DNA of 64,000 nucleotides from Amphiscolops sp. MND2022. Taxonomy: Eukaryota. Position numbers and translations under genes: made by a program. The notes below the pieces were generated by a model, which saw only the letters and a list, made by a program, of their open reading frames with translations, had not been told where the DNA came from and made no database searches. The stretch is taken from NCBI GenBank assembly GCA_964187785.1, contig OZ076409.1:72232001-72296000 (forward strand), given 5' to 3'. Positions 28,301-60,556 of the stretch are shown piece by piece (positions within the stretch are counted from its first letter, which is position 1; every line of letters begins with the position of its first letter).

Positions 28301-30202
28301 GCATTTTTTTGCGATCTCGTGATCTAACCATAGGATTTTAAAGTTGGAGCGGCCCCCACCAGATTTTCCAAAGTTATTCGCCCCCCACCGGGTTCCAGCG
28401 TGATTGAAATATTTTGACGGGGTACACGGGCGACCGTTAGGGGTCATTTTGGGGGTAAAATTTATATCAGGTCGCATAACTTTTTTCCTGTTGGATTAAA
28501 ACTTTGGGACCCTGCTAAAAGTTTCTTGACCGTGTTGCGGGGGCTCCGGAGGTCCAAACCAAATTTTTCTATCTTGAAGCTATCTCCAAGTACCCCCCCG
28601 CCCAAACCGTTATTTTTCCGGAAACGCAGGTTTTTGACCCGGAAGGAGTCGTCTGAGCGCGGGGTCGTTAGGTGATGTATTGGGGACGGCCTTGAGACGA
28701 AGCGGGGGATATATAGTTTGCCGACCCCAGTTTACCCCACGGACGGGAAATGACCGTTATATGAGCGGGAAAAATGCCCCCCTCCACGTTTTACCGCTAT
28801 TTCCGGTGTGAAGGAGTGGGAGTAGCGCTTCGGGTGCCATATATCAAAAATAAGTTTAGACAAGGACCTATCGGAAACATGTAGTTTGGGACCCCCTGGA
28901 CCAACCCGTTAGCGGGAAATGGGGCTTCCGCCTCCTTTTTGTACTGCTAAAACCGTAAAATGGGCATTGAGGGATAAATATCTCGTGAACGCGTGGAGCA
29001 ATCGTGTCCATCACTACTACAAGGTTTCATACCCATGATATGGTGCCTTCAGGTGGGCAAACAGATTTCCGCTATCTATCACCGTTACCGACTTGGCCCC
29101 CCAGCCTAACCGCTATGTGACCGGAAATGTCACTTTTTGAGCCCAAAGGGTCGGTCCCAGCCAGGGAACGTTAGGTAACTTATTGTAGTACTCATTGAGA
29201 TGAGTTGGGGGACATAGTTTCAGTCACCCCCCGTTACCCCTTAAGACCGGAAATGACCGTTATGTGAGTAAATTTGCCGTTTTTGTCCTATTTGAAGGGC
29301 ATTTAGATGCGGAAGGAGTGGTAATAGGTGCTTGGACACTATATGAGGTAAGGGAGGACGTGAGGCGAGCATTCGGAAATAACCGTTATGTTGGCCCTAA
29401 AGTCCCCCTGGTACCGTAAACGACCGGAAATGGTCAAATTTTGTGTCTATTGGGTACAAATGTTTGGTATTTTATGAATTAAAGTACATGGAAGGTGTTT
29501 CAAAGGCCTCCAGAAGTGAACATCGTCATGAAACCTTGTGGGGGGTAACGGTATATAACACCGGAAGTCCAAACCGTTGGTCACAGAATAGGTTTTTTGG
29601 TTTCAAAATGTCTTTAGGCGTAGTTTTATGGGTTGAATCGTCATAATATCAACTATTACGGACATTTTTCGGAAAAAAAATTTTTTCACATTAGTTTCAG
29701 AGACCTCCAATGCTTCAGTCAACATAACCGTTACATTTTGATAGCCTTTCAAGTTGGCCTGGCGTCAACTTGGAAGGGCTATCCTTCTAAAATCGTTAAT
29801 CAAGAGTGTTTTTGGGTAGGTATATGTTGCATTAGTACCAATTAGAGCTTCATCAACAGTTTGCCAACGGCAAAAACGATGTCGTGATAATTCCGTTATA
29901 AGAAAATTAATTAAAAAAATTGTTTACAAAGTTGATTTTTTTCAATTAAAATGTGTCCTAATGCCACCAAATTGAATAAAATAAGAAATGGTATTGACTA
30001 AAACTAAATAACAATGAAAAAGAAGATCAACATTTTTATTAGGTCTCATTATGGAAGCTGAAACCTCACGTTTTAGTTTAATTAACGTCAACGCCACATA
30101 CTTTACATCAACGCCCACCGTCTGTGGGCATGCCGAGGCATGCCCTTCGACGACGTATACCAAACAACCTCCATATCTACACCCACCCGCGGTAGCAGCT
30201 AG
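10381..30202 (+). repeat. Run of ten family-A units U7-U16 (1971, 1990, 1972, 1993, 1972, 1994, 1991, 1972, 1973, 1994 bp)
   Basis: Unit ends at 12351, 14341, 16313, 18306, 20278, 22272, 24263, 26235, 28208, 30202; colinear with U2; U12 (20279-22272) is the A' subtype like U4. Confidence 0.93.
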
Positions 30203-32185
30203 GTGGGCGGGGGTAATTCCCCTTCAAAAAATTCGGCCGGCGGGTTGGGTCCTGCCGGACGTCAAATAGCAGAAAATACCTATTAGGAAACGGCGACACA
30301 AAACGGCGATTTTTAAATCTAACCACAATTTTTTGGACTTGGAGTGCATGCGGCCCTGAAATGCCCATACGAATCGAAGTTCCTGCTGACGTTAAGCGAT
30401 TGAAATAATATATAAAAAGTTATGGCCCATTTTTGGGTCACCGAGAAGGGCAAAATGAGGAAAATTTTAACTAAGTCGCTGATAACTCAAAATGTGTTAA
30501 TTTTTGGATATTGACTGTGAAACAAGCTTGGAACCTTCATTTCGTGGCTGTGGCATTGCACTAAACACAAAAGATGTAAAGTTTTTACATTTTTTGAAAA
30601 TTCGACATTTTTGAATTTTTTTTCACTAGTATCAGCACCCCATATGTCAAAAACGCCTCAGAAAAAAAATTTTATTTGCTTTAAATTGGAAACCTTGGTA
30701 TCCATGGTTTCTGTCGGAACCTACTCGCAGCCAAACACCCAACAGTTTGCATCCAATGTGAAAATAAAAATTTTTTCTGGGTCATAAGCGTTTCACAAGG
30801 ATTTCTCAACTTAGTATTAATTTACAAAATGGTCATTTTGAACACAAAATTTTCATCGAGGCTTGTCGGCTATAGGCTTAATGTTCTAGAACGGTCCCAC
30901 TGGCAACGTAGGAACCATTTATAGTAATTGAAAGTTATAAAAAAATTTTTTCACCCGTTCTTCAGTCATTTTTCAGACATTCGGAACTTATCTTAGAAAA
31001 ATTTCGTCTCAAACACCCATTTTTTGACAGGTCGAAAAATCAAATTAGGATTTTTAAGCAAAATTATTAACTCTGACGTAACCCATGGGGCCCATGATAC
31101 TCAAAACAACGATTGACACTGGTATCAATGGCTCCAATAACATATGAGTCGCGATAAGACGTTATTTTGAGCAATACGTCTCAATTGAGGTAAACATCTC
31201 GCAAGCCTGGGATCACAGTGAAATGTAAATTCATCAAAAATTTACTCATTTTTGTCAATCACTATGTGCACAGAGTGCGTAGGGTGAGTTCCAGCACTAT
31301 AATGAGGTTTTTGAAGGCATCGGGTTGCTCAAGGGGTGGTATGAGACATTTTTTTCTATATACTACTGTATTTTCCAAAACTTTTAGCCCATTATCTGGA
31401 AAAACTAACTTGACAAAATACTTTCAATAATTTTATTCAAAGGCTACAATGTAGATGAACCCAGTGGTTGATCAGAAACTTTCATCTCTTTCGTTTTCCG
31501 AAATATTTCCCTTCGCATGTGTTACATTTGTAGCAGAAAAAAAATCGAAACTGAAAAATACGCTATTTTGCTAATATAGAATCGCAATGATTGTGCCTAA
31601 AAACTCTTTAAACACTTCTAACGCGACCTTACGCACCCAAAATGATCAAAAATGCTATTCACAATGGTGACATGTGCTCTTTCAACGATCCTGACTGAAC
31701 AAGGTTTGCATATTGTTCAAGTACCTGTCAGCTAAATCTTGTGATAGCCTTTTCAGTTGGCCTTGTGTCAACTTTGGAAGGCTATCACATCAAAAAACCA
31801 TCAACAAAAATAATTTTTGTTTATTGGATCTTACAGCCGATACTTTTTTTCGTGATTTTATACTACCGTTAGTATATTTCATCAGGTCACCTTACGATTG
31901 CATTCAGTCTTTGATAAAAACCTATGAACTCAAAGTCACATTTATATATTTTTTTGCCAGAAAAAAACCTCAGAAATATCTAAAATATATAAAATAGAGT
32001 CTTTAACATTTTTACGTTTCAAGTTTTTGCCGTTCTTAGGCCAATCAACGTCCTAGAGCCACATCCAGTCATACTGTACAACGCCACATAGTGTTGCGAC
32101 GTGCACAGTCTGTGGGCATGCCGAGGCATGCCCTTCGACGACGTATGCCGAATACCGCGGGCCTACGCCCGCGCTCCCCGGCTAG
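30203..32185 (+). repeat. Unit U17, family C (1983 bp)
   Basis: AT-rich interior not visibly alignable to A beyond the ends; H1-type hairpin at 31741-31788; core at 32114; close copy at 43103-45087. Confidence 0.9.
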
Positions 32186-33571
32186 GTGGTTGGGGCGGTC
32201 CCCAGAACGCACAAGGAGGCGCGGGGAGGGTCCTGCGCCGACGTAAAATAATTTCATATAATACTAGTATCCTACATGGGTGTTTTAGAAGCGATTTTGG
32301 AATCTAACCGTAGGATTTGGATAATTTTTTGCATGCGGCCATAACTCGAAATTCTAAGAACTTTTTCCTACTGTCATTTTCCCCGCAAATTGTTTTTTGT
32401 TGACTTATGGCCGAAAAACCGGAAATAACGTCCTTTTTAGACGTTATATCCGAAGTGTCGTCATAACTTTTTTCCAGGGCATGCTAGCGTTCTCGTTCAC
32501 TTTTACACTTAGTTGCAGCATCTCGAAATACAACTGGTGGAAAATTTTGGTTGCATTCGGATCACCCCCCACTGAGATAGAGGGGTTCCCCCCTCCAGTT
32601 TTACCCCCCAAATTTGCAAAAAAGCCAATTTTGAGCATGAAGCCGAGGATTTAGCGTACCCGCACCCTTCTGATGTTTTGTTGTACGTATTGGGGTCAAT
32701 TTGCCAACATGTATGGTTTTCACCCCCAACCCCCCTGGGACCGGAAATGACACTTTTTTGTGTTTTTCGGCAGAATTTAGCCTTTTTCATTATTAGGCAG
32801 TCGTTTTAGGGACTCCTAGCAGGTTATCGAATTTGAAATACAACCTGATCACCACCCAATGACAACATGTTGGCCACTTGGAGGTATCATCATGACCGGA
32901 AGTGGGGTCAACCCCCCTTTTTGTGACCGCTTTTTGACCTTGTGCACCAAAATGCCAACAACTTGAGGCCTAATGACGCATTCAAATCTGTACAAAGATA
33001 AAATGTTAGACAACCGAAGTCCCGGAAGGTCTTTAGCATATACCGGAAGTTACCCCCATGACCGGAAGTTGCCCAATGTGACCGGAAATGGTCCAAAAAA
33101 TAATGTAAAGTTGAATTTTTCACTATTTCAAGACCACTTCATTGAACATTTTCATTCCCAAAACAAGCGCACTGGCTTGTTTTGCTGAATTTATGGAAAT
33201 TGATGAGCTCTATCACCCCCGATAGCCTTCGAAGTTGACCTTGCGTCAACTTTGGAGGCTATCGATACTGAAAATGAACAACAAAGTACATTGTTGCTCT
33301 CGGTTTTTTCCCGTTGTTTTTCCTCAAACATTCTTGAGACATATACATGGCCGTTAGTTGAAATCAATCTTTAGCCCATGTTATAGCTGGAGCAGCGAAG
33401 CGTTACACAGACTAGTGTGGTTTTGAAATTACATTATTTAAATTAACAACTGACCGTCTTAGTCAACTCCACACATTCATACCAACGCCCACCGTCTGTG
33501 GGCATGCCGAGGCATGCCCTTCGACGACGTATGACGAATCCACTCCAACGACACCCGCAGTCCTCAGCTAG
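32186..33571 (+). repeat. Unit U18, family D (1386 bp, single copy in window)
   Basis: Bounded by CTAG|GTG on both sides; H1-type hairpin at 33220-33264; ACCGGAAGT/ACCGGAAAT motifs; core at 33500. Confidence 0.85.
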
Positions 33572-36500
33572 GTGGGGGGATATATCTCCACTTTTTTTGC
33601 GACCGCGGGTAGGGTCCTGTCGGGAGCTTCTATTTACCAAGCTTACGGCGCTATATACTAGAGAAAATTTTTCCGGCACCGAACTTTTTTTTGAACCATA
33701 GGATTTGTACCATTTTTTGCATGCGGCCCTAATTTGGGCATACAAGACGAAGTTCCTGCTGACGTTAAGCGATGGTTTCATTGTGTAACGAGATATAGCC
33801 ACTTTTTGGTGCGAATTTTGAGGTATTTTTGAGAAAAATTTTACAAACAGCTCGAATGCAAAAAATTGAAAAACTTGTGACAATCGACCTATCATTGGTT
33901 TAAACCTTCGATTCTTTGCCCTAGCAATGCACTAGACCCAAAAGATCTAAAACTTTTACATTTTCCAAAAATTTGACCAAATTGACTCGGGTTTCACTAC
34001 TATATGTAACCAATGTGACAAAAACACCTCAGAAAAAAATTTTTATTTGCTTAAATTTAGAAACCTTGGTATCCATGGTTTCTGTCGGAACCTACTCGCA
34101 GCCAAACACTCAACAGTTTGCATCCAATGTGAATTTAAATTTTTTTTCGAGGTCATAGGTGTTTCACAAGGATTTCACAACTTAGTTTCATATTACAAAT
34201 TGGTCATTTTCAACATCATATTTCCATCGAGGCATGTCGGATAGAGTCTTATTGCTTACGAACGGTCCTACTGGCAACGTGTTAACCAATTATAGAAATA
34301 CAAAGTTATAAAAAAATTTTTTCACCCGTTCTTCCATCATTTTTCAGACATTCGGAACTTATCTTAGAAAAATTTCGTCTCAAAAACCCATTTTTTGTCC
34401 GGTCGAAAACTCAAATTCAGCTTTTTAGGCACAATTATTAACTCTGACGTACTCAGTGGGGCCCATGATACTCAAAACAACGATTGGGGTTGGTACCATT
34501 GGCTCAAATAACATATGAGTCGCGATAAGACGTTATTTTTAGCCATACGTCTCAATTGAGGTAAACATCTCGCAAGCCAGGGATCTCTGTGAAATGTGAT
34601 TTCATCAAAAAGTTACCCATTTTCGCCAATTACTATGTGCACAGAGTGCGTAGGGTGACTTTCAGCACTATAATGAGGTTTTTGAAGGATTCGGGTTGCT
34701 CAAAGGGTGGTATGAGACATTTTTTTCCCACATACTACTGTATTTTCCAAAAATTTTAGCCCATTATCTGGAAAAACTAACTTGACAAAATACTTTCAGT
34801 TACTCTATTCGAAGCTTAGAATATAGATGAACACTGTGGTTGATCAGAAACTATTAACTATTTTGTTTTTAGAAAAAAACTGCCTTGCATGTGTTACATT
34901 AGTGGCAGGAAAAAAACCAGTAGCTCCAAAAATCAAAAATTTGGACGGACAGACTTCCAATGATGCAAAACAAAAACGTTTCAACAACTTCTGACGCCAC
35001 TTTTTTTACCCAAGAGGTTCGAAAACACCATTAACAATGCTGACATTCGCAATAAATAAGATCAAGGTCTATTTACTAACACTTAGGTTTTAAATTTTTT
35101 TCTCGGAAACCCATTATTGTCAGGTCGCAAATTCAAATTTGGTTTTGGAAGCAATACTTTTCACTCTGAAGCAAACCGTTGGGCCCAAAATACTCAACAA
35201 CAACAAAAAGACTATCACCATATGCTCTAATAACATATGAGATGCGACTGTATGTTTTTAACACAATAACTCTCATTCTGAAGTAAACATGTTGAAAGCC
35301 TTGAATCACCGTGAGAAGTGATTTCATCAAAAAATATTTCTTTTTCGTCAATCACTAAGTACACAGAACCCGTTGTGTTAGTTTCAGTCGTGAAATGAGG
35401 TTCTACCGTAATATCGGTTGCTCAAGGTGTTGTATAAGGCAAAAACTTCCTCTTTTCTACTAACTTCTTCAAATATTTCAACCCTTTGTCACACGAAGTT
35501 AATATTCAAAATCTCTTTGAATTGTTTCTTAAGGTTGTGGTGAATTGTTAGAACAATTACTATGATCGAAGAATGCTAGTATTGGTGTTTGGACCATGTC
35601 CGGATGAACAAATCGCAAAATCAAGAAAAAATTGTTTCCTTTTTTGGTTATTTTGGCAGTACTAAAAATGTTAGCTGATAAATAATTTTTTCGAAGGCAC
35701 CATTGGATTCCGCTCAAAAAGTTGATTATAAGACATGTGTAATAACCCCGTATCTTTTCAATTTAAATAAATTTAAAAGACAACCTTTTTTGACGAAAAT
35801 CCTAAAAATCATACCATTTCCTAAAAAACTTCAAATGCACTCCATTTGACGTATAAGAATAGCACAGAAAACTATCATATACCGATCAACTCTACTCCCA
35901 TTGTAGACTATTAGAATTTTGTTTTGATTGAATTTTGAAGAATATTAAAAAATTTTGAACCCTCCAAAAATGGACCAAAATTACACGAAAAAATTGACCT
36001 TAAAATTTTAAAATGTCAAAAAATCATCAAAACCACAGCTTCTTGGGGTTCTATCAACTCCACGTGGTCCACAGAGTACGCTAAAACAGGTTTTACCCGT
36101 TTTTGAGCAATATGTGAAAAAGCCGACATTTTTGGGAAAGAAAAACATACCGTTTCCTAAAATATTTCAAATGCACGCCATTTGCCGTATGAGAATAGCA
36201 CAGAAAACTATCACATACCGATCAACTCTACTTTCATTGTAGATAATTAGAAGTTAGTTTAAATGAAAGTTAGACGGATAATAAAAAAATATAAATCCTC
36301 CAAAAGTGGGCAAAAATTACACGAAAAAATTGTCCTTAAAATATTAAAATGTCGAAAAATCATCAAAACCACAGCTTCTTGGGGTTCTATCAACTCCACA
36401 TGGTCCACAGAGTACGCTAAAACAGGTTTTACCCGTTTTTGAGCAATATGTGGAAAAGCCGACATTTTTGGGAAAGAAAAACATGACATTTCCTAAAAAA

Positions 36501-38339
36501 ATTCACATGCACGCCATTTGGCGTATAAGAATAGCACAGAAAACTATCATATACCGATCAACTCTACTCCTATTGTAGATTATTAGAACTTTGTTTTGAA
36601 TGAATTTTGATGGATAATAAAAAATTTTGAACCCTCCGAAAATGGGCTAAAATTACACGAAAAAATTGACCCTAAAATTTTAAAATGTCTAAAAATCATC
36701 AAAACCACAGCTTCTTGAGGTTCTATCAACTCCACATGGCCCAAAGAGTATGCCAAACCAGGTTTTGCGCGTTTTTGAGCAAAATTTAGGAAAGCCGATT
36801 TTTTTGAGGAAGAAAAACATATCATTTCCTAAAAAACTTCAAATGCACGCCATTTGGCGTATAACAATAGCACAGAAAACTATCACATACCAATCAACTC
36901 TACTCTTTTTGTAGATTACCAGAAATTTGCTTAGAATAACTTTTGATGAATATTTATAAATTTTAAACCCTCCTAATATGGGCCAAAATCACACGGAAAA
37001 ATTGACCCTAAGTATTAAAATGTCAGATATTCATCAAAACCCCAGCTTCTTGGGGTTCTATCATTTCCATATGACTTTCAGAGTATACCAAACAAGTTAT
37101 TAACATTGGGCGATAATTAAAAGGACCAATTTTATTCTGAAGAAAACCATAATATGTTCAATATAAGAAGTGAATCATTCCACATATATACCCTGTCTAA
37201 TGTTCTAAATTAGCAAAAAAATATATACTTGATGTTTTTTGAATGTGAGCTTCATAAAAGGTTGAGATGTGATAATACGTAAATGGATTCCAAGTTTCAT
37301 CGAAAAGTCAATGGAATACGTCCAATCAACTTCAATCTTAACAATTCGATAACAAAAAACACTTAAGTACATTCCATCTCCCTATCGGGGAGATGAGAAT
37401 GTACTTTTCAAAAACTAAAAACTTAGATCTTTCTATCTTTTGTAACACTTACTGTAACAGCTGAAATGATGAAAGAATAATTATTCTTCTAATAACTTCA
37501 AGATTTTTTGCTTCACCTTTTATTTCTGCAGAACAAAACCATAAGACATACATATTTTTCGCAGCTAAGTTCGACTGTATTACCCAGTGAACAAAGGTAT
37601 GACAGGAAGATTACAAGTTGTCTCAAAACTTTCCCGCCTTCCAAAATCATGAAACGTCTACACAACCAAGATAGTAAAGGAATGAATGTGGAATGCATCA
37701 TTTTAGTTAAAATAAATAACGTGTAGAACTTACCTTTATCTGAAGATGACGTTGATTTATGATCTTTAGAGGATAGTTCAATTTTTGACCATAATAGTGC
37801 GAAACTAATTATTATATGAATAATGGCGTGGAAAGCGTTCAGAAATTGCAGTATTTTCGATTCGAGCATGTATGCGTGGGTTCCTTTGGTGGCATTAGCT
37901 TAGTGTACATGATGGAAGTTTTCGATCTATTATGATAAAATTTACTCACAAGTCTTTGTTTTTCCTACTTTTTTATGCCATTAAGTACATTCATTCTATC
38001 CCCTTCTCTGGGAATGTACGTTTGCCAAATGACTGTCATCCAAATTTTGCATTCGCGAAGAGTTTAAATACATAAACACGTCTTTAGCGTTTCCAAATCA
38101 CAACCGATTAACATTTTTTAAAATTTTTTTTATGAAAATTGATAATTTGTTTTGATTTTGGTATCTTCTACTTTTATCATCCATCATAACAAGCACCTTA
38201 CCATGTCTCTCGCTTGTCTTCATTTTACAACGCCACATAGCGTTCCGACTCCCACCGTCTGTGGGCATGCCGAGGCATGCCCTTCGACGACGTATGCCAA
38301 CTACTTTTTATATCTACACCCGATTGCGGTAGCGGCTAG
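33572..38339 (+). repeat. Unit U19, family E (4768 bp)
   Basis: 5' ~1.3 kb homologous to family C; internal 336-bp tandem repeats; H2 hairpin at 37365-37406; core at 38263; near-identical to 45088-49856. Confidence 0.9.
35810..37150. repeat. Internal tandem repeat, ~4 x 336 bp
   Basis: AGCACAGAAAACTATCA at 35861, 36197, 36533, 36869. Confidence 0.9.
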
Positions 38340-41300
38340 GTGGGCGGGGGTAATTCCCCAACTAAAAAATCGGCCGGCGGGTAGGGTCCTGCCGGCCGTC
38401 CAAAATCAAAAATATACTAGTAGAAAACGGCCGGTCAAACGAGCTATTTTTTTATTTAACCGTTAGAATTTGGGTTTAGATTGCATGCGGCCATGAAATG
38501 GCCATACAAATCGAAGTTCCTGCTGACGTTTTGCGATTGAAACACTTTATAAAAAGTTATGACCAATTTGTCAGTCACCTAGAAGGGCAAAATGAGGAAA
38601 ATTTTAACAAAGACGCTGATAACTCAAAATGTGTTATTTTTTGGACTTTGACTGTGAAACAAGCTTGGAACCTTCATTTCGTGGCTGTGGCATTGCACTG
38701 AAAGCAAAAGATGTAAAGTTTTTACATTTTGTGAAAATTTGACATTTTTGAAATTTTTTTCACTACTATCAGTACCATATATGTCAAAAACACCTCAGAA
38801 AAAAAATTTTATTTGCTTTAACTTGGAAACCTTGGTATCCATGGTTTCTGTCGGAACCTACTCGCAACCAAACAACCAACAGTTTGCATCCAATGTGAAA
38901 ATAAAAAATTTTTCTGGGTCATAAGCGTTTCACAAGGATTTCTCAACTTAGTATTAATTTACAAAATGGTCATTTTGAACACAATATTTTCATCGAGGCT
39001 TGTCGGCTATAGCCTTAATGTTCTAGAACGGTCCCACTGGCAACGTAGGAACCATTTATAGTAATAGAAAGTTTAAAAAATATATTTTCACCCTGTCTTC
39101 AGTCATTTTTCAGTCATTCGGAACTTAACTTAGAAAAATTTCGACCAAAATACCCACTTTTTGACAGATCGAAAATTCAAATTCAACTTTTTAAGCAAAA
39201 TTATTAACTCTGACGTAACCAGTGGGGCTCATGATACTCAAAAACACTATTGGGACTGGTACCAATGGCTCCAATATCATATGAGCCGCGATAAGACGTT
39301 ATTTTGAGCAATACGTCTCAATTGAGGGAAACATCTCGCAAGCCTGGGATCACAGTTAAAAGTGATTTCGTCAAAAATTTACTCTTTTTCGTCAATCACT
39401 ATGTACACAGAGTGCGTAGGGTGAGTTTCAGCACTATAATGCGGTTTTTGAAGGAATCGGTCTGCTCAAGGGGTGGTATGAGACATTTTTTTTGCATGTA
39501 GTACTATATTTCTCAAAACTTTTAGCCCATTATCTCGAAAAGCTCACTTCGCAAATTACTTTCAGTTACTCTATTCGAAGCTTAGAATATATATGAACAC
39601 TGTGGTTGATCAGAAACTCTTGACTATTTTGTTTTAGGAAAAAAACTGCCTTGCATGTGTTACATTAGTGGCAGGAAAAATACCAGTAGCTCCAAAAATC
39701 ACAATTTTGGACGGACAGACCTGCAATGATGCAAAGCAAAAACGTTTCAACAACTTCTGGCGCCACTTTTTTTACCCAAGAGGTTCGAAATTACTATTAA
39801 CAATGCTGACATTCGCTATAAATAAGATCGAGGTCAATTTACTAACACTTAGGTTATACATTTATATCTGAGAAACCATTCTTTGTCAGGTCGCAATTTT
39901 AAATTTAGTTTGGGAAGCAATACTTTTCACTCTGAAGCAAACCGTTGGGCCCAAATTACTCAAAAACTACAAAAAGACTGTCACCATATGCCCTAATAGC
40001 ATATGAGATTCGACCGTATGTTTTTAACACAAAAACTCTCATCCGAAGTAAACATGTTGAAAGCCTTGAATCACCGTGAGAAATGATTTCATCAAAAAAT
40101 ATTCCTTTTTCGTCAATCTTTATCTACACAGAACACGTTGTGTCATTTTCAGCCGTGAAATGAGCTTCTACCGTAATATGGGTTGCTCAAGGTGTTGTAT
40201 AAGACAAAAACTTCCTCTTTTCTACTATCTTCTTCAAATATTTCAACCCTTTGTCACAAGAAGTTAATATTCAAAATCTCTTTGAAATGTTTCTTTAGGT
40301 TGGGGTGAAGTGTTAGAACAATAATTATGATCGAAGAATTATAGTATTGGTGTTTGGACCATGTCCGGATGAACAAATTGCAAAATCATGAAAAATTTCT
40401 TACCATTTTTGGTCATTTTGTCAGTACAAAAAATGTTAGCTGAAAAAGAATTTTTTTGATGGCACCATTGGATTCCTCTCAAAAAGTTAGCTATATGAAC
40501 TGTGTAATAACCCCGTATCTTTTCAATTTAAATAATTTTAAAAAGCAAACTTTTTTGACTAAAATCCTAAAAATCATACCATTTCCTAAAAAATTTCAAA
40601 TGCCCCCCATTTGACGTATAAGAATAGCACAGAAAACTATCACATACCGATCGACTCTACTTCCATTGTAGATTACCAGAATTTTGTTTAGAACAATTTT
40701 TGACGGATGCAAAAAAAATTTAAACCCTCCAAAAAAGGGCCAAAATTACACGAAAAAATTGACCTTAAAATTTTAAAATGTCGAAAAATCATCAAAACCA
40801 CAGCTTCTTGGGGTTCTATCAACTCCACGTGGTCCACAGAGCATGTTAAAACAAGTTTTACCCGTATTTGAGCAATATGTGAAAAAGCCGACTTTTTTGG
40901 GAATGAAAAACATACCATTTCCTAAAAAATTTCAAACGCACCCCATTTGACGTATAAGAATAGCACAGAAAACTATCACATACCGATCGACTCTACTTCC
41001 AATGTAGGTTACCAGAATCTTGTTTAGAACAATTGTTGACGGATGCAAAAAAAAAATAAACCCTCCAAAAATGGGCCAAAATTACACGAAAAAATTGACC
41101 TTAAATTTTTAAAATGTCAAAAAATCATCAAAACCACAGCTTCTTGGGGTTCTATCAACTCCACGTGGTCCACAGAGTATGCTAAAACAGGTTTTACCTG
41201 TTTCTGAGCTATATGTGAAAAAACCGACATTTTGGGGAAGAAAAACTTACCATTTCCTAAAAAATTTCAAATGCACGCCATTTGCCGTATGAGAATAGCA

Positions 41301-43102
41301 CAGAAAACTATCACATACCGATCAACTCTACTTCTATTGTAGATTATCAGATTTTTGTTTAGAACAAATTTTTATGGATATAAAAAAAATTTAAACCCTC
41401 CAAAAATGAGCCAAAATAACACGAAAAAATGGACCCTAAATTTTTAAAATGTCAAAAAATTATCCAAACCACAGCTTCTTGGGGTTCTATCAGCTCCACG
41501 TGGTCCACAGAGTATGCTAAAACAGGTTTTGCCCGTTTTTGAGCAGTATATGAAAAAGCCGACATTTTTGGGGAAGAAAAACATACCATTTCCTAAATAA
41601 TTTCAAATGCAGGCAATTTGCCGTATGAGAGTAGCACAGAAAACTATCACACACCGATCAACTCTACTTCTTTTGTAGATTATCAGAATTATGTTTAGAG
41701 TAAAGTTTTATGGATATGAAAAATTTTTATACCCTCCAAAAATGGGCCAAAATGACACGAAAAAATTGACCTCAAATTTTTAAAATGTCAAAAAATTATC
41801 CAAACCACAGCGTCTTGGCGTTCTATCAACTCCAAATGACCTTCAGAGTATACCAAACCAGGTATTGCCAATCTTTTGAGCAATATTTAAAAACACCGAC
41901 TATTTGGCAAGAACACCATAATATGTTCCATATAAGAAGTGAATCATTCCACATATATACCCGGTCTAATATTTCCAAATTAGCGATAACATTTATACAT
42001 GATGGTTTTTGAAAGTGAGCTTCATAAGAGGTTGAGATGTAATAATACGTAAATGGACCCTAAGTTTCATTGAAATCTCAATGGAATACGTCCAATCAAC
42101 TTCAATCCTAACTATTATATAACAAAAAACACTTGAGTACATTCCATCTCCCCATCGGGGGAGATGAGAATGTACTTTTCAAAAGCCAAAAACTTCGAAT
42201 TTTAAATCTTTTGTAACATTGTATGTAACTGTTGAAACGATGAACGAATAAAAATGCTTCTAGTACCTTCATCAATTTTTGCTTCAGCTCCTATTTCTGC
42301 AGAACAAAACCAAAAGACACACTTACAGCAGTTAAGTTCGATTGTATAACTCAGTGAATAAAGGTATGACTGAGGAAGTTCACAAGTTGTTTCAAAAGTT
42401 TCCGGCCTTCCAAAATCATGAAACGTCCACACAACCAAGATAGCAAGTGAAAGAATGCTGAATGCACCTTATTAGATGAGATAAATAATGTGTGGAACTT
42501 GCCATTATCTCAAGATGACGTTGATTTATGATCTTTTAAGGATAGTTCGATATGTGACCACAATAGTGGAAAACTTAATACTATTTGAAGAACACCGTGG
42601 AAAGCGTTCAGAAAGGACAGTATATTTGTTTCGAGCATGCATGCGTGTGTTCCTTTGGTGACGTTAGCTTAGTGTACATGACGGAGGTATTCGAGAGATT
42701 ATGATAGAGTTTACTCACAAGTCTTTGTTTTTTTAAACTTTCTATGCCGTTGAGTACATTCGTAAGGTACATCCATCCCCTTCTCTGGGAATGTACGTTT
42801 GCCAAATGACTGTCATCCAAAATTCGTAATCCGGACGAGTTTAACTACATAAACATGTGATGAGCGTTTTCAATTCACAACCGAATAACATTTTTTTTCT
42901 CGAAAATGATGATGGTTTTGATTTTGATGTCTTCTACTTTTATCATCATGCAAACGACCTTACCATGTCTCTCTTCTGTCGTCATTTGTACAACGCCACA
43001 TAGCGTTCCGACGCCCACCGTCTGTGGGCATGCCGAGGCATGCCCTTCGACGACGTATGCCAAATGAGCCATACCCGCACTCTGGAGTGCGGTAGCGGCT
43101 AG
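38340..43102 (+). repeat. Unit U20, family E' (4763 bp)
   Basis: Diverged colinear paralog of U19; core at 43026; similar to the partial unit from 60557. Confidence 0.9.
40575..41925. repeat. Internal tandem repeat, ~4 x 336 bp
   Basis: AGCACAGAAAACTATCA at 40626, 40962, 41297, 41633. Confidence 0.9.
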
Positions 43103-45087
43103 GTGGGCGGGGGTAATTCCCCTTCAAAAAATTCGGCCGGCGGGTTGGGTCCTGCCGGACGTCAAATAGTGTGAAACATCCAGTAGGAAACGGCGACATA
43201 AATCAGCGATTTTAAAATTTAACCGTTAGAATTCGGACTTGGAGTGCATGCGGCCCCAAAATGCCCATACGAATCGAAGTTCCTGCTGACGTTAAGCGAT
43301 AAAAACATTTTATAAAAAGTTATGGCCCATTTTACGTTCACCTATAAGGGTAAAATGAGGAAAATTTTTACAAAGTCGCTGATAACTCAAAAGACATTAT
43401 TTTTTGGACTTTGACTGTGAAACAAGCTTAGAACCTTCATTTCGTGGCTGTGGCATTGCACTGAACACAAAAGATGTAAAGTTTTTACATTTTTTGAAAT
43501 TTCGACATTTTTGATTTTTTTTTCACTACTATCAGTACACTATATGTCAAAAACACCTCTGAAAAAAATTATTATTTGCTTAAAATTGGAAACCTTGGTA
43601 TCCATGGTTTCTGTCGGAACCTACTCGCTGCCAAACACCCAACAGTTTGCATCCAATGTGAATTTAAAATTTTTTTCGAGGTCATAAGGGTTTCACAAGG
43701 TTTTCATAACTTAGTATTAAACTACAAACTGGTCATTTTCAACATAATATCTTTGTCGAGGCATGTCGGATATAGTCCTATTGCTCACGAACGGTCCTAC
43801 TGGCAACGTAATAACCATTTATAGAAATGTAAAGTTATAAAAAAATTTTTCACCCGGTCTTCAGTCATTTTTCAGTCATTCGGAACTTAACTTAGAAAAA
43901 TTTCGACCAAAATATCCATTTTTTGTCAGGTCGAAAAATCAAATTCAGATTTTTAAGCAAAATTGTTAACTCTGACGTAACCCATCGGGCCCATGATACT
44001 CAAAACAACGATTGACACTGGTATCAATGGCTCCAATAACATATGAGTCGCGATAAGACGTTATTTTGAGCATTACGTCTCAATTGAGGTAAAGATCTCG
44101 CAAGCCAGCGATCACTGTGAAATGTGATTTCATCAAAAATTTACTCTTTTTTGTCAATCACTATGTGCACAGAATGCGTAGGGTGCGCTTCAGCACTATA
44201 ATGAGGTTTTTGAAGCCATCGAGTTGCTCAAGGGGTGGTATGAGACATTTTTGTCCCCTATACTACTGTATTTTCCAAAATTTTTAGCCCAATATCTGGA
44301 AATACAAACTTGACAAAATACTTTCAACTACTTTATTCAAAGGTTACAATATAGATGAACACTGTGGTTGATCAGAAACTTTCATCTCTTTCGTTTTCCG
44401 AAATATTTCCCTTCGCATGTGTTACATTCGTAGCAGAAAAAAAAATCGAAACTGAAAAATACGCAATTTTGCTAAGATAGAATCGCAATGATTGTGCCTA
44501 AAAACTCTTTAAACACTTCTAACGCAACCTTACGCACCCAAAATGATCGAAAATGCTATTCACAATGGTGACATGTGCTCTTTCTACGATCCTGGCTGGA
44601 CAAGGTTTGCATATTTTTCAAGTACCTGTCAGCTAAATCTTGTGATAGCCTTTTCAGTTGGCCTTGTGTCAACTTGGGAAGGCTATCACATCAAAAAACC
44701 ATCAACAAAAATAATTTTTGTTTATTGGATCTTACAGTCGATACTTTTTTTCGTGATTCTATACTACCGTTAGTATATTTCATCAGGTCACCTTACGATT
44801 GCATTCAGTCTTTGATAAAAACCTATGAACTCAAAGTCACATTTCTATATTTTTTTGCCAAAAAAAACATCAAAAAGATCTAAAATATATAAAATAGAGT
44901 CTTTAACATTTTTACATTTCAAGTTTCTGCCGTTATTAGGCCAATCAACGTCCTAGAGCCACATCCTGCCACATACTGTACAACGCCACATAGTGTTGCG
45001 ACGTGCACAGTCTGTGGGCATGCCGAGGCATGCCCTTCGACGACGTATGCCGAATACCGCGGGCCTACGCCCGCGCTCCCCGGCTAG
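43103..45087 (+). repeat. Unit U21, family C (1985 bp)
   Basis: Paralog of U17 with the same tail (...GCCCGCGCTCCCCGGCTAG); core at 45016. Confidence 0.9.
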
Positions 45088-48000
45088 GTGGGGGGGATAT
45101 ATCTCCACTTTTTTTGCGACCGCGGGTAGGGTCCTGTCGGGAGCTTCTATTTACCAAGCTTACGGCGCTATATACTAGAGAAAATTTTTCCGGCACCGAA
45201 CTTTTTTTTGAACCATAGGATTTGTACCATTTTTTGCATGCGGCCCTAATTTGGGCATACAAGACGAAGTTCCTGCTGACGTTAAGCGATGGTTTCATTG
45301 TGTAACGAGATATAGCCACTTTTTGGTGCGAATTTTGAGGTATTTTTGAGAAAAATTTTACAAACAGCTCGAATGCAAAAAATTGAAAAACTTGTGACAA
45401 TCGACCTATCATTGGTTTAAACCTTCGATTCTTTGCCCTAGCAATGCACTAGACCCAAAAGATCTAAAACTTTTACATTTTCCAAAAATTTGACCAAATT
45501 GACTCGGGTTTCACTACTATATGTAACCAATGTGACAAAAACACCTCAGAAAAAAATTTTTATTTGCTTAAATTTAGAAACCTTGGTATCCATGGTTTCT
45601 GTCGGAACCTACTCGCAGCCAAACACTCAACAGTTTGCATCCAATGTGAATTTAAATTTTTTTTCGAGGTCATAGGTGTTTCACAAGGATTTCACAACTT
45701 AGTTTCATATTACAAATTGGTCATTTTCAACATCATATTTCCATCGAGGCATGTCGGATAGAGTCTTATTGCTTACGAACGGTCCTACTGGCAACGTGTT
45801 AACCATTTATAGAAATACAAAGTTATAAAAAAATTTTTTCACCCGTTCTTCCATCATTTTTCAGACATTCGGAACTTATCTTAGAAAAATTTCGTCTCAA
45901 AAACCCATTTTTTGTCAGGTCGAAAACTCAAATTCAGCTTTTTAAGCACAATTATTAACTCTGACGTAACCAGTGGGGCCCATGATACTCAAAACAACGA
46001 TTGGGGTTGGTACCATTGGCTCAAATAACATATGAGTCGCGATAAGACGTTATTTTTAGCCATACGTCTCAATTGAGGTAAACATCTCGCAAGCCAGGGA
46101 TCTCTGTGAAATGTGATTTCATCAAAAAGTTACCCATTTTCGCCAATTACTATGTGCACAGAGTGCGTAGGGTGAGTTTCAGCACTATAATGAGGTTTTT
46201 GAAGGATTCGGGTTGCTCAAAGGGTGGTATGAGACATTTTTTTCCCATATACTACTGTATTTTCCAAAAATTTTAGCCCATTATCTGGAAAAACTAACTT
46301 GACAAAATACTTTCAGTTACTCTATTCGAAGCTTAGAATATAGATGAACACTGTGGTTGATCAGAAACTATTAACTATTTTGTTTTTAGAAAAAAACTGC
46401 CTTGCATGTGTTACATTAGTGGCAGGAAAAATACCAGTAGCTCCAAAAATCAAAAATTTGGACGGACAGACTTCCAATGATGCAAAACAAAAACGTTTCA
46501 ACAACTTTTGACGCCACTTTTTTTACCCAAGAGGTTCGAAAACACCATTAACAATGCTGACATTCGCAATAAATAAGATCGAGGTCTATTTACTAACACT
46601 TAGGTTTTAAATTTTTTTCTCGGAAACCCATTATTGTCAGGTCGCGAATTCAAATTTGGTTTTGGAAGCAATACTTTTCACTCTGAAGCAAACCGTTGGG
46701 CCCAAAATACTCAACAACAACAAAAAGACTATCACCATATGCTCTAATAACATATGAGATGCGACTGTATGTTTTTAACACAATAACTCTCATTCTGAAG
46801 TAAACATGTTGAAAGCCTTGAATCACCGTGAGAAGTGATTTCATCAAAAAATATTTCTATTTCGTCAATCACTAAATACACAGAACCCGTTGTGTTAGTT
46901 TCAGTCGTGAAATGAGGTTCTACCGTAATATCGGTTGCTCAAGGTGTTGTATAAGGCAAAAACTTCCTCTTTTCTACTAACTTCTTCAAATATTTCAACC
47001 CTTTGTCACACGAAGTTAATATTCAAAATCTCTTTGAATTGTTTCTTAAGGTTGTGGTGAATTGTTAGAACAATTACTATGATCGAAGAATGCTAGTATT
47101 GGTGTTTGGACCATGTCCGGATGAACAAATCGCAAAATCAAGAAAAAATTGTTTCCTTTTTTGGTTATTTTGGCAGTACTAAAAATGTTAGCTGATAAAT
47201 AATTTTTTCGAAGGCACCATTGGATTCCGCTCAAAAAGCTGATTATAAGACATGTGTAATAACCCCGTATCTTTTCAATTTAAATAAATTTAAAAAGCAA
47301 ACTTTTTTGACGAAAATCCTAAAAATCATACCATTTCCTAAAAAATTTCAAATGCACACCATTTGACGTATAAGAATAGCACAGAAAACTATCATATACC
47401 GATCAACTCTACTCCCATTGTAGACTATTAGAATTTTGTTTTGATTGAATTTTGAAGATTATTAAAAAATTTTGAACCCTCCAAAAATGGACCAAAATTA
47501 CACAAAAAAATTGACCTTAAAATTTTAAAATGTCAAAAAATCATCAAAACCACAGCTTCTTGGGGTTCTATCAACTCCACGTGGTCCACAGAGTACGCTA
47601 AAACAGGTTTTACCCGTTTTTGAGCAATATGTGAAAAAGCCGACATTTTTGGGAAAGAAAAACATACCATTTCCTAAAATATTTCAAATGCACGCCATTT
47701 GCCGTATGAGAATAGCACAGAAAACTATCACATACCGATCAACTCTACTTTCATTGTAGATGATTAGAAGTTAGTTTAAATGAAAATTAGACGGATAATA
47801 AAAAAATATAAATCCTCCAAAAGTGGGCGAAAATTACACGAAAAAATTGTCCTTAAAATATTAAAATGTCGAAAAATCATCAAAACCACAGCTTCTTGGG
47901 GTTCTATCAACTCCACATGGTCCACAGAGTACGCTAAAACAGGTTTTACCCGTTTTTGAGCAATATGTGGAAAAGCCGACATTTTTGGGAAAGAAAAACA

Positions 48001-49856
48001 TAACATTTCCTAAAAAATTGCACATGCACGCCATTTGGCGTATAAGAATAGCACAGAAAACTATCATATACCGATCAATTCTACTCCTATTGTAGATTAT
48101 TAGAACTTTGTCTTGAATGAATTTTGATGGATAATAAAAAATTTTGAACCCTCCGAAAATGGGCTAAAATTACACGAAAAAATTGACCCTAAAATTTTAA
48201 AATGTCTAAAAATCATCAAAACCACAGCTTCTTGAGGTTCTATCAACTCCACATGGCCCACAGAGTATGCCAAACCAGGTTTTGCGCGTTTTTGAGCAAA
48301 ATTTAGGAAAGCCGATTTTTTTGAGGAAGAAAAACATATCATTTCCTAAAAAACTTAAAATGCACGCCATTTGGCGTATAACAGTAGCACAGAAAACTAT
48401 CACATACCAATCAACTCTACTCTTTTTGTAGATTACCAGAAGTTTGCTTAGAATAACTTTTGATGAATATTTATAAATTTTAAACCCTCCTAATATGGGC
48501 CAAAATCACACGGAAAAATTGACCCTAAGTATTAAAAAGTCAGATATTCATCAAAACCCCAGCTTCTTGGGGTTCTATCATTTCCATATGACTTTCAGAG
48601 TATACCAAACAAGTTATTAACATTGGGCGATAATTAAAAAGACCAATTTATTCTGAAGAAAACCATAATATGTTCAATATAAGAAGTGAATCATTCCACA
48701 TATATACCCTGTCTAATGTTCTAAATTAGCAAAAAAATATATACTTGGTGTTTTTTGAATGTGAGCTTCATAAAAGGTTGAGATGTGATAATACGTAAAT
48801 GGATTCCAAGTTTCATCGAAAAGTCAATGGAATGCGTCCAATCAACTTCTATCTTAACAATTCGATAACAAAAAACACTTAAGTACATTCCATCTCCCTA
48901 TCGGGGAGATGAGAATGTACTTTTCAAAAACTAAAAACTTAGATCTTTCTATCTTTTGTAACACTTACTGTAACAGCTGAAATGATGAAAGAATAATTAT
49001 TCTTCTAATAACTTCAAGATTTTTTGCTTCACCTTTTATTTCTGCAGAACAAAACCATAAGACATACATATTTTTCGCAGTTAAGTTCGACTGTATTACC
49101 CAGTGAACAAAGGTATGACAGGAAGATTACAAGTTGTCTCAAAACTTTCCCGCCTTCCAAAATCATCAAACGTCTACACAACCAAGATAGTAAAGGAATG
49201 AATGTGGAATGCATCATTTTAGTTAAAATAAATAACGTGTAGAACTTACCTTTATCTGAAGATGACGTTGATTTATGATCTTTAGAGGATAGTTCAATTT
49301 TTGACCATAATAGTGCGAAACTAATTATTATATGAATAATGGCGTGGAAAGCGTTCAGAAATTGCAGTATTTTCGATTCGAGCATGTATGCGTGGGTTCC
49401 TTTGGTGGCATTAGCTTAGTGTACATGATGGAAGTTTTCGATCTATTATGATAAAATTTACTCACAAGTCTTTGTTTTTCCTATTTTTTTTATGCCATTA
49501 AGTACATTCATTCTATCCCCTTCTCTGGGAATGTACGTTTGCCAAATGACTGTCATCCAAATTTTGCATTCGCGAAGAGTTTAAATACATAAACACGTCT
49601 TTAGCGTTTCCAAATCACAACCGATTAACATTTTTTAAAATTTTTTTTATGAAAATTGATAATTTGTTTTGATTTTGGTATCTTCTACTTTTATCATCCA
49701 TCATAACAAGCACCTTACCATGTCTCTCGCTTGTCTTCATTTTACAACGCCACATAGCGTTCCGACTCCCACCGTCTGTGGGCATGCCGAGGCATGCCCT
49801 TCGACGACGTATGCCAACTACTTTTTATATCTACACCCGATTGCGGTAGCGGCTAG
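45088..49856 (+). repeat. Unit U22, family E (4769 bp)
   Basis: Near-identical to U19; 336-bp repeat anchors at 47378, 47714, 48050, 48386; core at 49780. Confidence 0.9.
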
Positions 49857-51144: not shown

Positions 51145-53118
51145 GTGCGGGGGGGTAACCCCAACAAAGATATTGGAGGATTCGGGTAGGGTCCTGAATC
51201 CGATTTTAACTCTAATAGCTATCGATAGGAAATCTTGCAAAAATTTCGGGATCTCGTGATCTAACCATAGGATTTTAAAGTTGGAGCGGCCCCCACCAGA
51301 TTTTCCGAAAATTAGCGCCCCCCACCGGGTTCCATACCCCGGAAAATTTTTTTCTGGCCACACGGGCGACCGTTAGGGGGTCATTTTATGGGTAAAATTC
51401 ATATTGGGCCACATAACTTTTTTTCTGTTGATTTAAAACTTTGGAAGCCTGCTAAAAGTTTCCTGACCGTATTGCAAGGGCTCCGGAGGTCCAAACCAAA
51501 TTTTTCTATCTTGAAGCTATCTCCAAGTACCCCCCCCCGCTCAAACCGTTATTTTTCCGGAAACGCAGGTTTTTGACCCGGAAGGAGTCGTCTGAGCGCG
51601 GGGTCGTTAGGTGATGTATTGGGGACGGCCTTGAGACGAAGTGGGGGACATGTAGTTTGCCAACCTCAGTTTACCCCCCGGACGGGAAATGACCGTTATA
51701 TGAGCGGCAAAAATGTCCCCCTCCACGTTTTACCGCTATTTCCGGTGTGATGGAGTGGGAGTAGCGCGTCGGGTGCCATATATCAAAAGTAGGTTTAGAC
51801 AAGGATCTATCGGAAATATGTGGTTTGGGACCCCCTGGACCAACCCGTTAGCAGGAAATGGGGCTTCCGGCCCGTTTTTTTACGGTTAAAAACGGAAAAT
51901 GGGCATTGAGGGGTAAATATCTCGTGAACGCGTGGAGCTACGGTGTCTTTCACTACTACAAGGTTTCATACCCATGATATGGTGCGTTCAGGGGGGCAAA
52001 CAGATTTCCGCTATCTATCACCGTTACGGACTTGGCCCCCCAGCCTAACCGCTAAGTGACCGGAAATGTCATATTTTGAGCCCAAAGGGTCGGTCCCAGC
52101 CAGGGAACGTTAGGTAACTTATTGTAAAACTCATTGAGACGAGTTGGGGGACATAGTTTCAGTCACCCCTCGTTACCCCTTGGGACCAGAAATGACCGTT
52201 ATGTGAGTAAATTTGCCGTTTTTGTCCTACTTGAAGGGCATTTAGATGCGGAATGAGTGGTAATAGGTGCTTGGACACTATATGAAGGAAGGGAGGATAT
52301 GAGGCGAGCATTCGGAAATAACCGTTATGTTGACCCTAAAGTCCCCCTGGTACCGTAAACGACCGGAAATGGTCAAATTTTCTGTTTATAGGGTACAAAT
52401 GTTTGGTATTTTGTAGATAAAAGTATCTATTAGGTGTGTCGACGGTCTGCAGTAGTGAACATAGTCATGAAACCTTGTGGGGGGTAACGGTATATAGCAC
52501 CGGAAGTCCAAACCGTTGGAGACAGGATAGGTTTTTTGGTTTTAAAATGTCTTTCGGCGTACTTTTGTCGACTATTGAGGACTACTTTTAAAAAATTAAA
52601 GTTTTTTCATATAGTTTTAGAGACTCCGAAACCTCAACCAACATAACCGTTACCTCATGATAGCCTTTCAAGTTGGCCTGGTGTCAACTTGGAAGGGCTA
52701 TCCTTCAAAAATCGTCAATCAAGTGTGTTTTTGGCTATGTTTGTATCATTTTAGAATCAAATAGAGCTTCAAGAAAAGTTTGCCAACGACAAAAACTATG
52801 TCGTGATGATTCCGTTATTAGAATAATAGTTAGCAAATTGTTGAGAAAATTGATTTTTTCCATATAAAATGTGTCCTAATTGCCAGCAAACCTATTTAAT
52901 TAACAAATGGTATTGATTGGAATGTATGTAACAGAGTTATAAAAGTTCAAATTGATTATTACGTTTCATTATGGAAGCTGAAACGTAATATTTTAGTTTA
53001 ATTAACGTCAACGCCACACACTTTACATCAACGCCCACCGTCTGTGGGCATGCCGAGGCATGCCCTTCGACGACGTATGGCAAATCCCTTCTAACGACGC
53101 CCGTACATCCCGGGCTAG
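51145..53118 (+). repeat. Unit U24, family A (1974 bp)
   Basis: Closely resembles U7 (10381-12351); core at 53046. Confidence 0.9.
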
Positions 53119-58373: not shown

Positions 58374-60556
58374 GTGGAGGTTATTTTATAATAATTAAAG
58401 TGTTTTTTTCCGGAGTTTGTGGCTTTGGAAAAAACAAAAGGCGAGAAATTGGGCACTCCGGGCTGAACCGTAAAGGCCGATTTTATACTGTAAAAAACGC
58501 CCATTCTAACTACGATCTTGAAACCCAGCCGTACGTTTTTGCTGAAAATTTGCATGCGGCTACAAAATCAGATTCTAAGAACTTTTTTCTGCTGACTTTT
58601 TTTTGGAATTTTTTTGTACGTTTCCCCCCCGCCCCCTAAAGGGGTCAATTTTCCCCAATTTTGTACTTATGAGTCATATTCTCAAAACTGGTTGATCTGA
58701 GAGCAATCCTTGTGGAGAGAACTTTTGTAGAGCGCTCTTCAGTTGACTTTTTGGAGTTTTTACTTTGGTGGTACGTTCACCCCCCACAGCGGAAATAGCG
58801 TTTTTGTAACTTCCGGTCGAGCAATTTTCCACCCAAAAATTAGAATTATGCCAGTTTAGAGCACGAAGCAGTAGTTTTAGCGTGTTCATACTCTCCTGAA
58901 GTTTTGTTGGGCGTATTGAGGTAGACATGATATCAAGTGTTCAGTTCACCCCCATCACCCCCTGGACCGGAAATGAACTTTCTTTTTTCCCCTTTCTTAC
59001 AGGAAGTGTCGATTTTCACCGGTAAGGAGTCCTTGTACGAGCAACTAGCAGGGCATCAAAATTGACGTACCACCTGGGGTCAACTTAGTGACCACGTGTT
59101 GTCCAGTCATGGGTACCGCCATGACCGGAAATGGGGTCAAAACCCCCCTTTTAGTTGTTATTTTATCAATTTGACTAGTGTTTGGTCCACATTCAAGTCG
59201 CGTAAAACAATTGAACCTGTGTGAGCATAAACTGCATGTTCACTGCGTAGACGTAACAGACACTGCCAGATACCGGAAGTAACCCCCGTGACCGGAAGTT
59301 GTCATTTTTGACCGGAAATGGTCCAAAAAATAGCGTAAATGCAGTTTTTCACTGCTTTTTAAGGTCAAGTTATTACTTTTTTCAATCTGCACGAGCTTGT
59401 CTTCAGGTTCGCTTTTGTTACCCGTGCACAGCGCAACAAATATACATCTGTAAAATTTTCTCTATAATATCGTCGGAGAGAGAAATAACGGGTTATTGGG
59501 GCTTTTTTTCAAAAATATTAGTCTATATCTGTAATTTTTGTCCAAAGTTATTCAACAGTACTACCACAGAGGTTAGTCTCTGCCCAAATACATGCCTAAC
59601 AAAACTACTTGTCACATTCGTCTCAGTTTGAGCGCTCCAGCTTTGCCTGGTCATAAGTTAAGTGACATAGAAAATTTTCATTTTTTTTCAAAAAAAATTT
59701 CTCGCCTTCAGTTCCTCCAAAGTAAAGAAACTTCCACACAACTAGGATTGCAAGTGGATGCATGTGGCAAGCCCTATAATTGAAGCACAAAAAACCGCTT
59801 AGGACGTCTCTTTATCGTAATTTGACGTTAACGTATGGTGCTTTGAATGAGAGCTTGCTAAGGGGTCGAGAAGTCAAAGTATGTAAATGGAACGTATGTC
59901 TCGTCGAAAAGTCATCGGAATACATGCAATGAACCCCAATTGCCCTCAATTGCAGCTGCCTAGTGCAACAACGTCTTTCAGGGACCTTTAACCTATTTTT
60001 ATTAGTGTCAAAACTATTTTAAATTCAGTTAGCAAGAAACACTTGAGTGCATTCTCATCTCTCCCCAGCGGGTGAGATGAGAATGTTCTTGCTAAAAGCC
60101 AGGTACTACGGCCCACTTTTGTTTTAATGCGACGCATTCTCTGCTTTAGCACATAGATATTTTTATTTCGCCTGATTTTCTGTATACACTCTGACTTGTT
60201 ATTATGAGTTCCTCGTCATTACTTTACATAAATTTACAATCATCAAACGTTATCGTCAACGCCATATAGATTTAGGCGCCCACCATTCCGTAGGTATGTC
60301 CAGGCACACTTTTCGATTACGTATGTCAAAACGCAAACGCGATAAAAAGTGCTAAAATTCAGAAACAGTGACAAACAAATTTGACTATTTGACATATGGG
60401 AGGTTTTCATATGGAACTTACACATAGCTGACATTTCACTACATTGCAGCTGACGCCCACATACCAACATCAACGCCCACTGTCCGTGGGCATGCCGAGG
60501 CATGCCCTTCGACGACGTATGGCAATTACCTTCCACCGACGCGCACTCTCCCCTAG
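58374..60556 (+). repeat. Unit U28, family F (2183 bp; D-like 5' half, B-like 3' half, decayed extra core)
   Basis: 59271-59340 matches D at ~33041-33110; 59715-59770 matches U25 at ~53755-53810; H2-type hairpin at 60045-60090; decayed core at ~60255-60330, intact core at 60488. Confidence 0.82.

Follow-up and report, generated by a model that had tools for sequence, protein, structure and literature searches.

The 64,000-nucleotide stretch of the Amphiscolops sp. MND2022 genome analyzed here (contig OZ076409.1 of assembly GCA_964187785.1, positions 72,232,001 to 72,296,000; hereafter the window) is over its whole length (1 to 64,000, plus strand) a mixed head-to-tail array of non-coding units, 30 in number (28 complete), which range from 1.3 to 4.8 kb and fall into 12 families when grouped by identity; no edge of the array lies within the window. 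Our analyses support the conclusion that whole units were joined by a precise, end-specific process rather than by crossover in a core that they share upstream of their ends. We give about an even chance to the reading that the units are non-autonomous Helitron-like (rolling-circle) elements which insert at their own end-to-start junction. The order of the units, with one letter for each family, is as follows:

A A B B B' G G B B B B B B' B B B B C D E E' C E H B I J B K E'

The seven bases CTAGGTG mark every junction in this array. They occur 29 times on the plus strand, and all 29 occurrences lie at unit junctions, each following a conserved tail block, against a background of 2.0 on average and 6 at most in 50 shuffles and 2 occurrences on the opposite strand. 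Different families meet at 19 of the 29 junctions, forming 18 distinct family pairs. Column counts across the junctions show that these 7 positions are invariant, as is a G at +7, while position -5 goes with the upstream unit (tail) and position +4 goes with the downstream unit (head), indicating that the join falls inside the seven bases in no register that can be fixed; CTAG|GTG is one of eight possible cut registers in the invariant stretch. Junctions with one partner in common locate the switch just as sharply. There are 16 pairs with a common tail and a different next family, including C/C (116 bp), E/E (371 bp), and 14 others, and in all 16 identity stops 3 to 4 bases past the junction; in the 17 pairs with a common head and a different preceding family, it stops 4 to 5 bases before the junction (the pairs within these counts are not independent of each other). 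End-specific joining is supported because tails stay with their own bodies and identity stops at the junction, an outcome that crossover in the longer shared core about 50 nucleotides (nt) upstream would not yield.

Does the array preserve the filled and empty forms of a single insertion site? An earlier note on this DNA had pointed to families C and E, which are separated by unit D at one place and adjoin directly at another, and had read the difference as one clean insertion or excision of D. The units and features concerned, together with a stranded end inside K that is needed further below, are the following:

30203..32185, plus strand: unit C copy 1, 1983 bp
32114..32133, plus strand: subterminal palindrome of C copy 1, two decamers with 1 mismatch to the p53 consensus
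32156..32173, plus strand: GC hairpin in the C tail, family-specific, 8 nt before CTAG (z -2.5)
32181..32189, plus strand: C|D junction, 9-bp repeat with the invariant CTAGGTG at 32182-32188
32186..33571, plus strand: unit D, 1386 bp, single copy in the window, head and tail conserved
32218..32239, plus strand: head hairpin of D, variable stem and conserved G-rich loop
33500..33519, plus strand: subterminal palindrome of D
33567..33575, plus strand: D|E junction, where the 9-bp repeat recurs
33572..38339, plus strand: unit E copy 1, 4768 bp, with a 336-bp tandem repeat in its center (35805-37063)
38340..43102, plus strand: unit E', 4763 bp
43103..45087, plus strand: unit C copy 2, 7.3% substitutions versus copy 1
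45083..45091, plus strand: C|E junction, where the 9-bp repeat is present once
45088..49856, plus strand: unit E copy 2, differing by 0.9% from copy 1, with H and not E' as the next unit
60250..60335, plus strand: decayed former 3' end within K, no CTAG junction after it, an internal control for selection on live ends

The coordinates and the local description in that note are borne out. C ends at 32185 and at 45087, with 116 identical bases upstream and 4 more shared past the junction, D fills the 1386 bp between C and E at the first place, and the head of E starts at 33572 and at 45088 with a one-G difference in its G run. Compared with each other, the D|E and C|E junctions agree over 5 bases on the upstream side and over 8 on the downstream side, where this difference ends the match. 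The breakpoint had been placed within the 7 to 8 bp (G)CTAGGTG and is indeed confined to a short repeat, one that is slightly wider than stated: the 9-bp GCTAGGTGG, composed of the 5 shared bases upstream and 4 downstream. C retains its own tail at both places, with the 116 bp of identity, hence the argument that no homologous crossover took place in the upstream core also holds.

What is not supported is the descent of both places from a common C-E parent by a single clean gain or loss of D. When the copies are aligned, their breakpoints fall in the 9-bp repeat and their divergence is discordant: the two C copies differ by 145 substitutions in 1978 columns (7.3%), compared to 42 in 4767 columns (0.9%) for the two E copies, and nearest the junction the counts are 21/700 for C versus 0/700 for E (P = 8e-7), the first 700 aligned E columns holding none. 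The outer neighbors differ as well, with B versus E' before C and E' versus H after E. Contigs of one sequencing run (share 0.07), compared with 28000-47000 and 31900-33900, bridge none of the C|D, D|E, and C|E junctions and for the most part do not cover them. A repeated X..Y neighborhood (two-copy families, within two steps) arose in 23% of 20,000 shuffles of the unit order, in a test chosen post hoc once the pattern had been seen. Given this mismatch in divergence and the possibility of chance adjacency, the C-D-E and C-E arrangements are no proven empty site. Both places may descend from a common C-E parent if C was later converted, since the B copies of this array are mosaics (see below), and independent assembly of the two arrangements is equally possible. 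The pair is one example of the general junction rule, not a proven single excision, and the presence or absence of D on its own is just one instance of that rule. On the Helitron-like reading, the simplest account is that a C|E-type junction received D as a unit, or else that the C-D-E and C-E arrangements were built separately; excision would be unnecessary in both cases. The body of D is 61% like the 5' half of K. A second candidate of the form X-[insert]-Y (B units U14-U15-U16 versus U9-U10) was set aside because the mosaicism of the B copies is too strong.

On either side of the junctions, units with different bodies have their ends in common, over about 230 nt in the head and about 110 nt in the tail. 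One head profile matches 29/29 heads and one tail profile 29/29 tails, the profiles having been built from 11 heads and 13 tails that are themselves among the 29 ends of each kind. The most conserved feature of the tails is a near-invariant 20-bp palindrome that lies 43 to 58 nt upstream of every unit end (29/29). It consists of two RRRCWWGYYY decamers with a spacer of 0, matched at 19/20 positions at all 29 ends, compared to one further match in the window and 0 to 1 in 20 shuffles. The response element of the p53 family is two such decamers with a spacer of 0 to 15, as defined in PMC5007497. By its letters, the tail palindrome fits a near-perfect, zero-spacer candidate p53-family site. Variant palindromes occur in U15 (28131-28150) and in U26 (56319-56348, with three decamers in a row), and in both the first and last bases are changed together; such paired outer-base changes would fit a hairpin, a symmetric binding site, or self-correction of the palindrome. 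The 31-nt tail core departs from its consensus by 0 to 3 mismatches at the 29 live ends and by 10/31 in the copy stranded inside K, which makes it likely that the live ends are under selection.

The heads carry a hairpin with a conserved G-rich loop (28/29), and this loop lies at +40 in 22 of them. Across 12 representative heads, 87% of cells pair, compared to 63.7% in shuffles (0/500) and 34 to 54% for slid structures, in a structure derived from the B fold and among related sequences, which inflate covariation tests. Double-sided changes are found in 6/9 pairs, a count that alone is no better than shuffles (163/500). A separate consensus fold recovers 8/9 of the pairs, the arms of each hairpin fold better with each other than when swapped (P = 1e-5), and the plus strand outfolds the minus strand in 11/11 heads. 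The head of K (58374-58470) is the sole one without the G-rich loop motif; it has a different, long AT-rich hairpin and keeps the junction and the +7 G. The inner head motifs may resemble those of DINE-1-type elements.

How was such an array assembled? Adjacent B-type copies are at least 10% apart (11 pairs, mean 12.8%), and the closest B pair, 2.4% apart, is separated by 40 kb, a pattern that favors separate arrivals over local amplification. The only neighboring pair that is 99% alike is A-A. B bodies are mosaics, in which the four-gamete share climbs from 0.11 to about 0.25 with distance. The B copies (1861-30202, 51145-53118, and 56403-58373) are patchworks of one another, with two tail types that tend to alternate along the run, and each contains an internal duplication with 500-bp spacing and about 64% identity. 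K is chimeric: its 5' half is D-like, another part, which includes a decayed end, is A/G/H/I-like, and its last 200 nt are B-like. To judge by this composition, it is a unit that acquired a new end; at 60250-60556, the decayed end is followed by about 200 nt that are about 70% like the B-type end and include a live palindrome. E is C-like at its 5' side and has a central 336-bp tandem repeat. In the E and E' units this repeat is found at 35805-37063, 40570-41920, 47322-48580, and from about 62790, with 3.8 to 4 copies that are 86 to 89% alike. The tail of U10 (to 18306) and those of E (to 38339 and 49856) are nearly the same over their last 25 bases and belong to unrelated bodies.

The Helitron-like reading is drawn from these lines together: the 29/29 CTAGGTG junctions with their 18 distinct pairs, the shared ends on different bodies, the plus-strand hairpins, the palindrome at 43 to 58 nt from the end, the separate arrivals of B, the old and new ends of K, and the tandem repeats of E. 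A HUH-type transposase encoded elsewhere would copy units out as single-strand circles and insert them at an existing junction, and the plus-strand nick would fall inside CTAGGTG, either after CTAG or after CTAGG, in which case the element would start with T. The enzyme, or a host factor, would recognize a unit by the hairpin at +40 in its head and the palindrome in its tail. Each insertion would restore two perfect junctions, so that the array could grow by stacking unrelated families.

A number of findings weigh against this reading. No transposase was seen: among 105 frames taken from 12 representative units, nothing reached the Pfam cut-off, and one match fell below it. The base after CTAG is G in 29/29 junctions, with GTG following, and no register of the core gives a TC start; no AT or TT target was seen within the window junctions, where the dinucleotides GG and GT are present in 29/29. 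Runs of identical neighbors, which rolling-circle concatemers would produce, are absent. A hairpin 10 to 12 nt before the end is not general, reaching z ≤ -2.5 in 4/16 tails tested and not in D, and no head-tail inverted repeat rises above shuffles in 13/13 units. The plus-strand preference of the heads is partly expected from their G richness, and related sequences can beat a covariation shuffle. The tails of E and of some B units are alike despite unrelated bodies, which suggests that tails may occasionally have been exchanged between families. Finally, a sharply bounded 7-bp core suits a recombinase equally well.

Under the reading suggested by this last point, which is the main rival, the units would be Crypton-like cassettes of a tyrosine recombinase, with CTAGGTG as the crossover core, and would excise as circles and re-enter any junction. 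In its favor, the invariant stretch measures exactly 7 bp and is sharply bounded, -5 going with the tail and +4 with the head, and recombinase cores measure 6 to 8 bp; Cryptons are described with 4- to 6-bp terminal direct repeats and a proposed circular intermediate (PMC3212892), and some CryptonV families with target specificity (PMC8869645). Clean gain and clean loss would both be natural. Position counts reveal no fixed 11- to 13-bp inverted repeats beside the core, however, hairpins that form on one strand and include G.T pairs suggest a single-strand step instead, and Pfam finds no recombinase gene in the window among the 105 frames; we regard these cassettes as possible, though rather unlikely. 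A tentative alternative, which we would call unlikely, is an animal cassette array outside known superfamilies, integron-like and self-targeting, in which a site-specific enzyme, guided by a single-strand hairpin of free stem and fixed loop, would excise units of a dozen non-coding families and re-insert them at a 7-bp core that every junction restores, with a p53-type site per end possibly tying mobilization to DNA damage or germline stress. Improbable in our view are non-autonomous retroelements (Penelope-, DIRS-, or retrozyme-like; for retrozymes see 10.64898/2026.07.22.740005), of which the tail would be the promoter and the head hairpin an RNA signal, with full-length copies pasted at the junction. 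The one-strand, G.U-tolerant, covarying hairpin would suit them, the candidate p53-like site 43 to 58 nt before the next head could serve as a promoter, and the B copies are mosaic, but all 29 heads are complete, without 5' truncation. Poly(A) is absent before the junctions, where the longest A run is 4; no Rfam family reaches its gathering score in the window (three sub-threshold matches fall in 30000-38500); and a hammerhead core motif occurs 5 times in the window and 0 times at junctions. DIRS- and Ngaro-type elements are bounded either by terminal inverted repeats that have an internal complement or by split direct repeats; ends of these kinds were not seen in 13 units, most of which hold no internal copy or complement of their ends above background (the best scores are 14.5 and 12.5 in E', with the others near the shuffle level).

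Two further explanations carry still less weight. A Dada-like, target-specific cut-and-paste element, quite improbable here, would have CTAGGTG as a 7-bp target duplication and would re-target the duplicated site. One core per junction in a single orientation would follow from this, and Dada elements make 6- to 7-bp target duplications at specific sites according to the portion of PMC8869645 concerned, a portion that does not mention tandem insertion for Dada. The duplicated target of Dada lies inside a multicopy RNA gene, whereas the window has no tRNA or Rfam gene and thus none carrying CTAGGTG, and the strand-specific hairpins would be left without explanation. The other, an old complex satellite shaped by ordinary recombination alone, with D gained or lost via 9-bp microhomology, is highly improbable: homologous exchange does occur, as the mosaic B bodies and the chimeric K and E attest, but 18 family pairs meet at the same 7 bases despite the longer, near-identical core about 50 nt upstream, live ends are conserved while the internal end is decayed, and neighboring units are not homogenized.

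Returning to the Helitron-like reading, we compared the units with described elements. They resemble Helitron1 (HLE1) in their two distinct conserved ends, their precise head-to-tail junctions, the adjacency of different elements with presence and absence, and the plus-strand activity known for Helitron1. Helraiser, whose two ends are distinct and measure about 150 bp, produces circles with precise CTAG-to-start junctions, which involve the plus strand only and are precisely cleaved (PMC5876387), and in maize two different Helitrons are joined at CTAG, one of which is cleanly absent in some lines (PMC2267711; AF466202). The 3' CTRR end of Helitron1 may have its counterpart in the CTAG at 29/29 junctions, in a register that is not fixed inside CTAGGTG. 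Unlike Helitron1, the array units have no TC start, a terminator hairpin in a minority of tails, and a covarying head hairpin, and the window lines up 29 consecutive junctions of 12 families where Helitron1 offers a pair or a homogeneous array. With Helitron2/Helentron elements (FoHeli, DINE-1, HINE, and Cg_HINE), the units share hairpins at both ends (28/29 heads and 29/29 tails), a palindrome 40 to 60 nt before the 3' end, central tandem repeats, and a lack of coding capacity. The Fusarium Helitron2 (FoHeli) has hairpins at its start and a hairpin 38 to 51 bp before its end (PMC5148889), HINEs are defined by subterminal inverted repeats (PMC4067079), and Helentron-type non-autonomous elements carry central tandem repeats (PMC7492417). 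Unlike these, the units have no head-tail subterminal inverted repeat, no T-rich ends, and no TT target among the junctions. Non-canonical ends are not unusual, since Paramecium has a Helitron class with other ends (10.1101/2025.11.06.686955). Overall, the system is likely Helitron-like in its working, yet we do not file it as Helitron1 or Helentron, because it has no TC start, no general terminator hairpin, no subterminal inverted repeats, and no enzyme seen in the window.

The likeness to Crypton and CryptonV lies in the lack of terminal inverted repeats, in non-autonomous derivatives, which are known for Crypton, and in a short core at both unit ends (7 bp here), though any head-to-tail array gives such repeats; the differences are that no recombinase is found in the window and that mixed tandem arrays and one-strand hairpins are not described for Cryptons in the parts of PMC3212892 and PMC8869645 that treat them. 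The transposons EnSpm-N6_DR and TE-X-4_DR are non-autonomous elements that also contain a consensus-like p53 site (PMC3485254 and PMC5007497), whereas the p53-type site here is at a fixed place before the end in all 12 families. TE-X-4_DR was dropped as a relative, because the two of its motifs examined differ in sequence and contain a spacer.

Helitrons joined precisely head to tail are already in print, as is one adjacent pair with presence and absence. Our literature search, which ran without Repbase Reports and most subscription journals, found no account of a dozen families with a single 7-bp junction in common along a long array. Strict self-targeting, if true, would allow unrelated mobile families to accumulate in large number at one safe location, and would account for the origin of long mixed arrays in animal heterochromatin without satellite-type homogenization. 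If eukaryotes have a transposase or recombinase whose target is 7 bases long and orientation-specific, it would be of interest as an integration tool. A 7-bp core, a hairpin at +40, and a palindrome near -50 make the ends easy to recognize.

Pattern searches outside this genome were also made. The 30-nt core pattern has 0 matches in viral contigs and 0 in metagenome contigs, and the palindrome plus core pattern has 1 metagenome match (L001), 0 viral, and 0 prokaryote matches. The match in L001 (430-506, minus strand) was treated as chance, being 60% GC and apparently non-coding, with the pattern at similar spacing as its only likeness and no match to the head profile. The core plus loop pattern has 18 prokaryote matches, also treated as chance, none with a tail profile match under an E value of 0.9. 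Within the window, a motif of 7 to 8 bases in the form ACCGGAA(A/G)T, absent from the A, C, E, and G units checked, occurs 71 times on the plus strand in B-type units, D, and K (e.g., at 32418, 32740, 32895, and 33042-33081) and resembles an ETS-type site.

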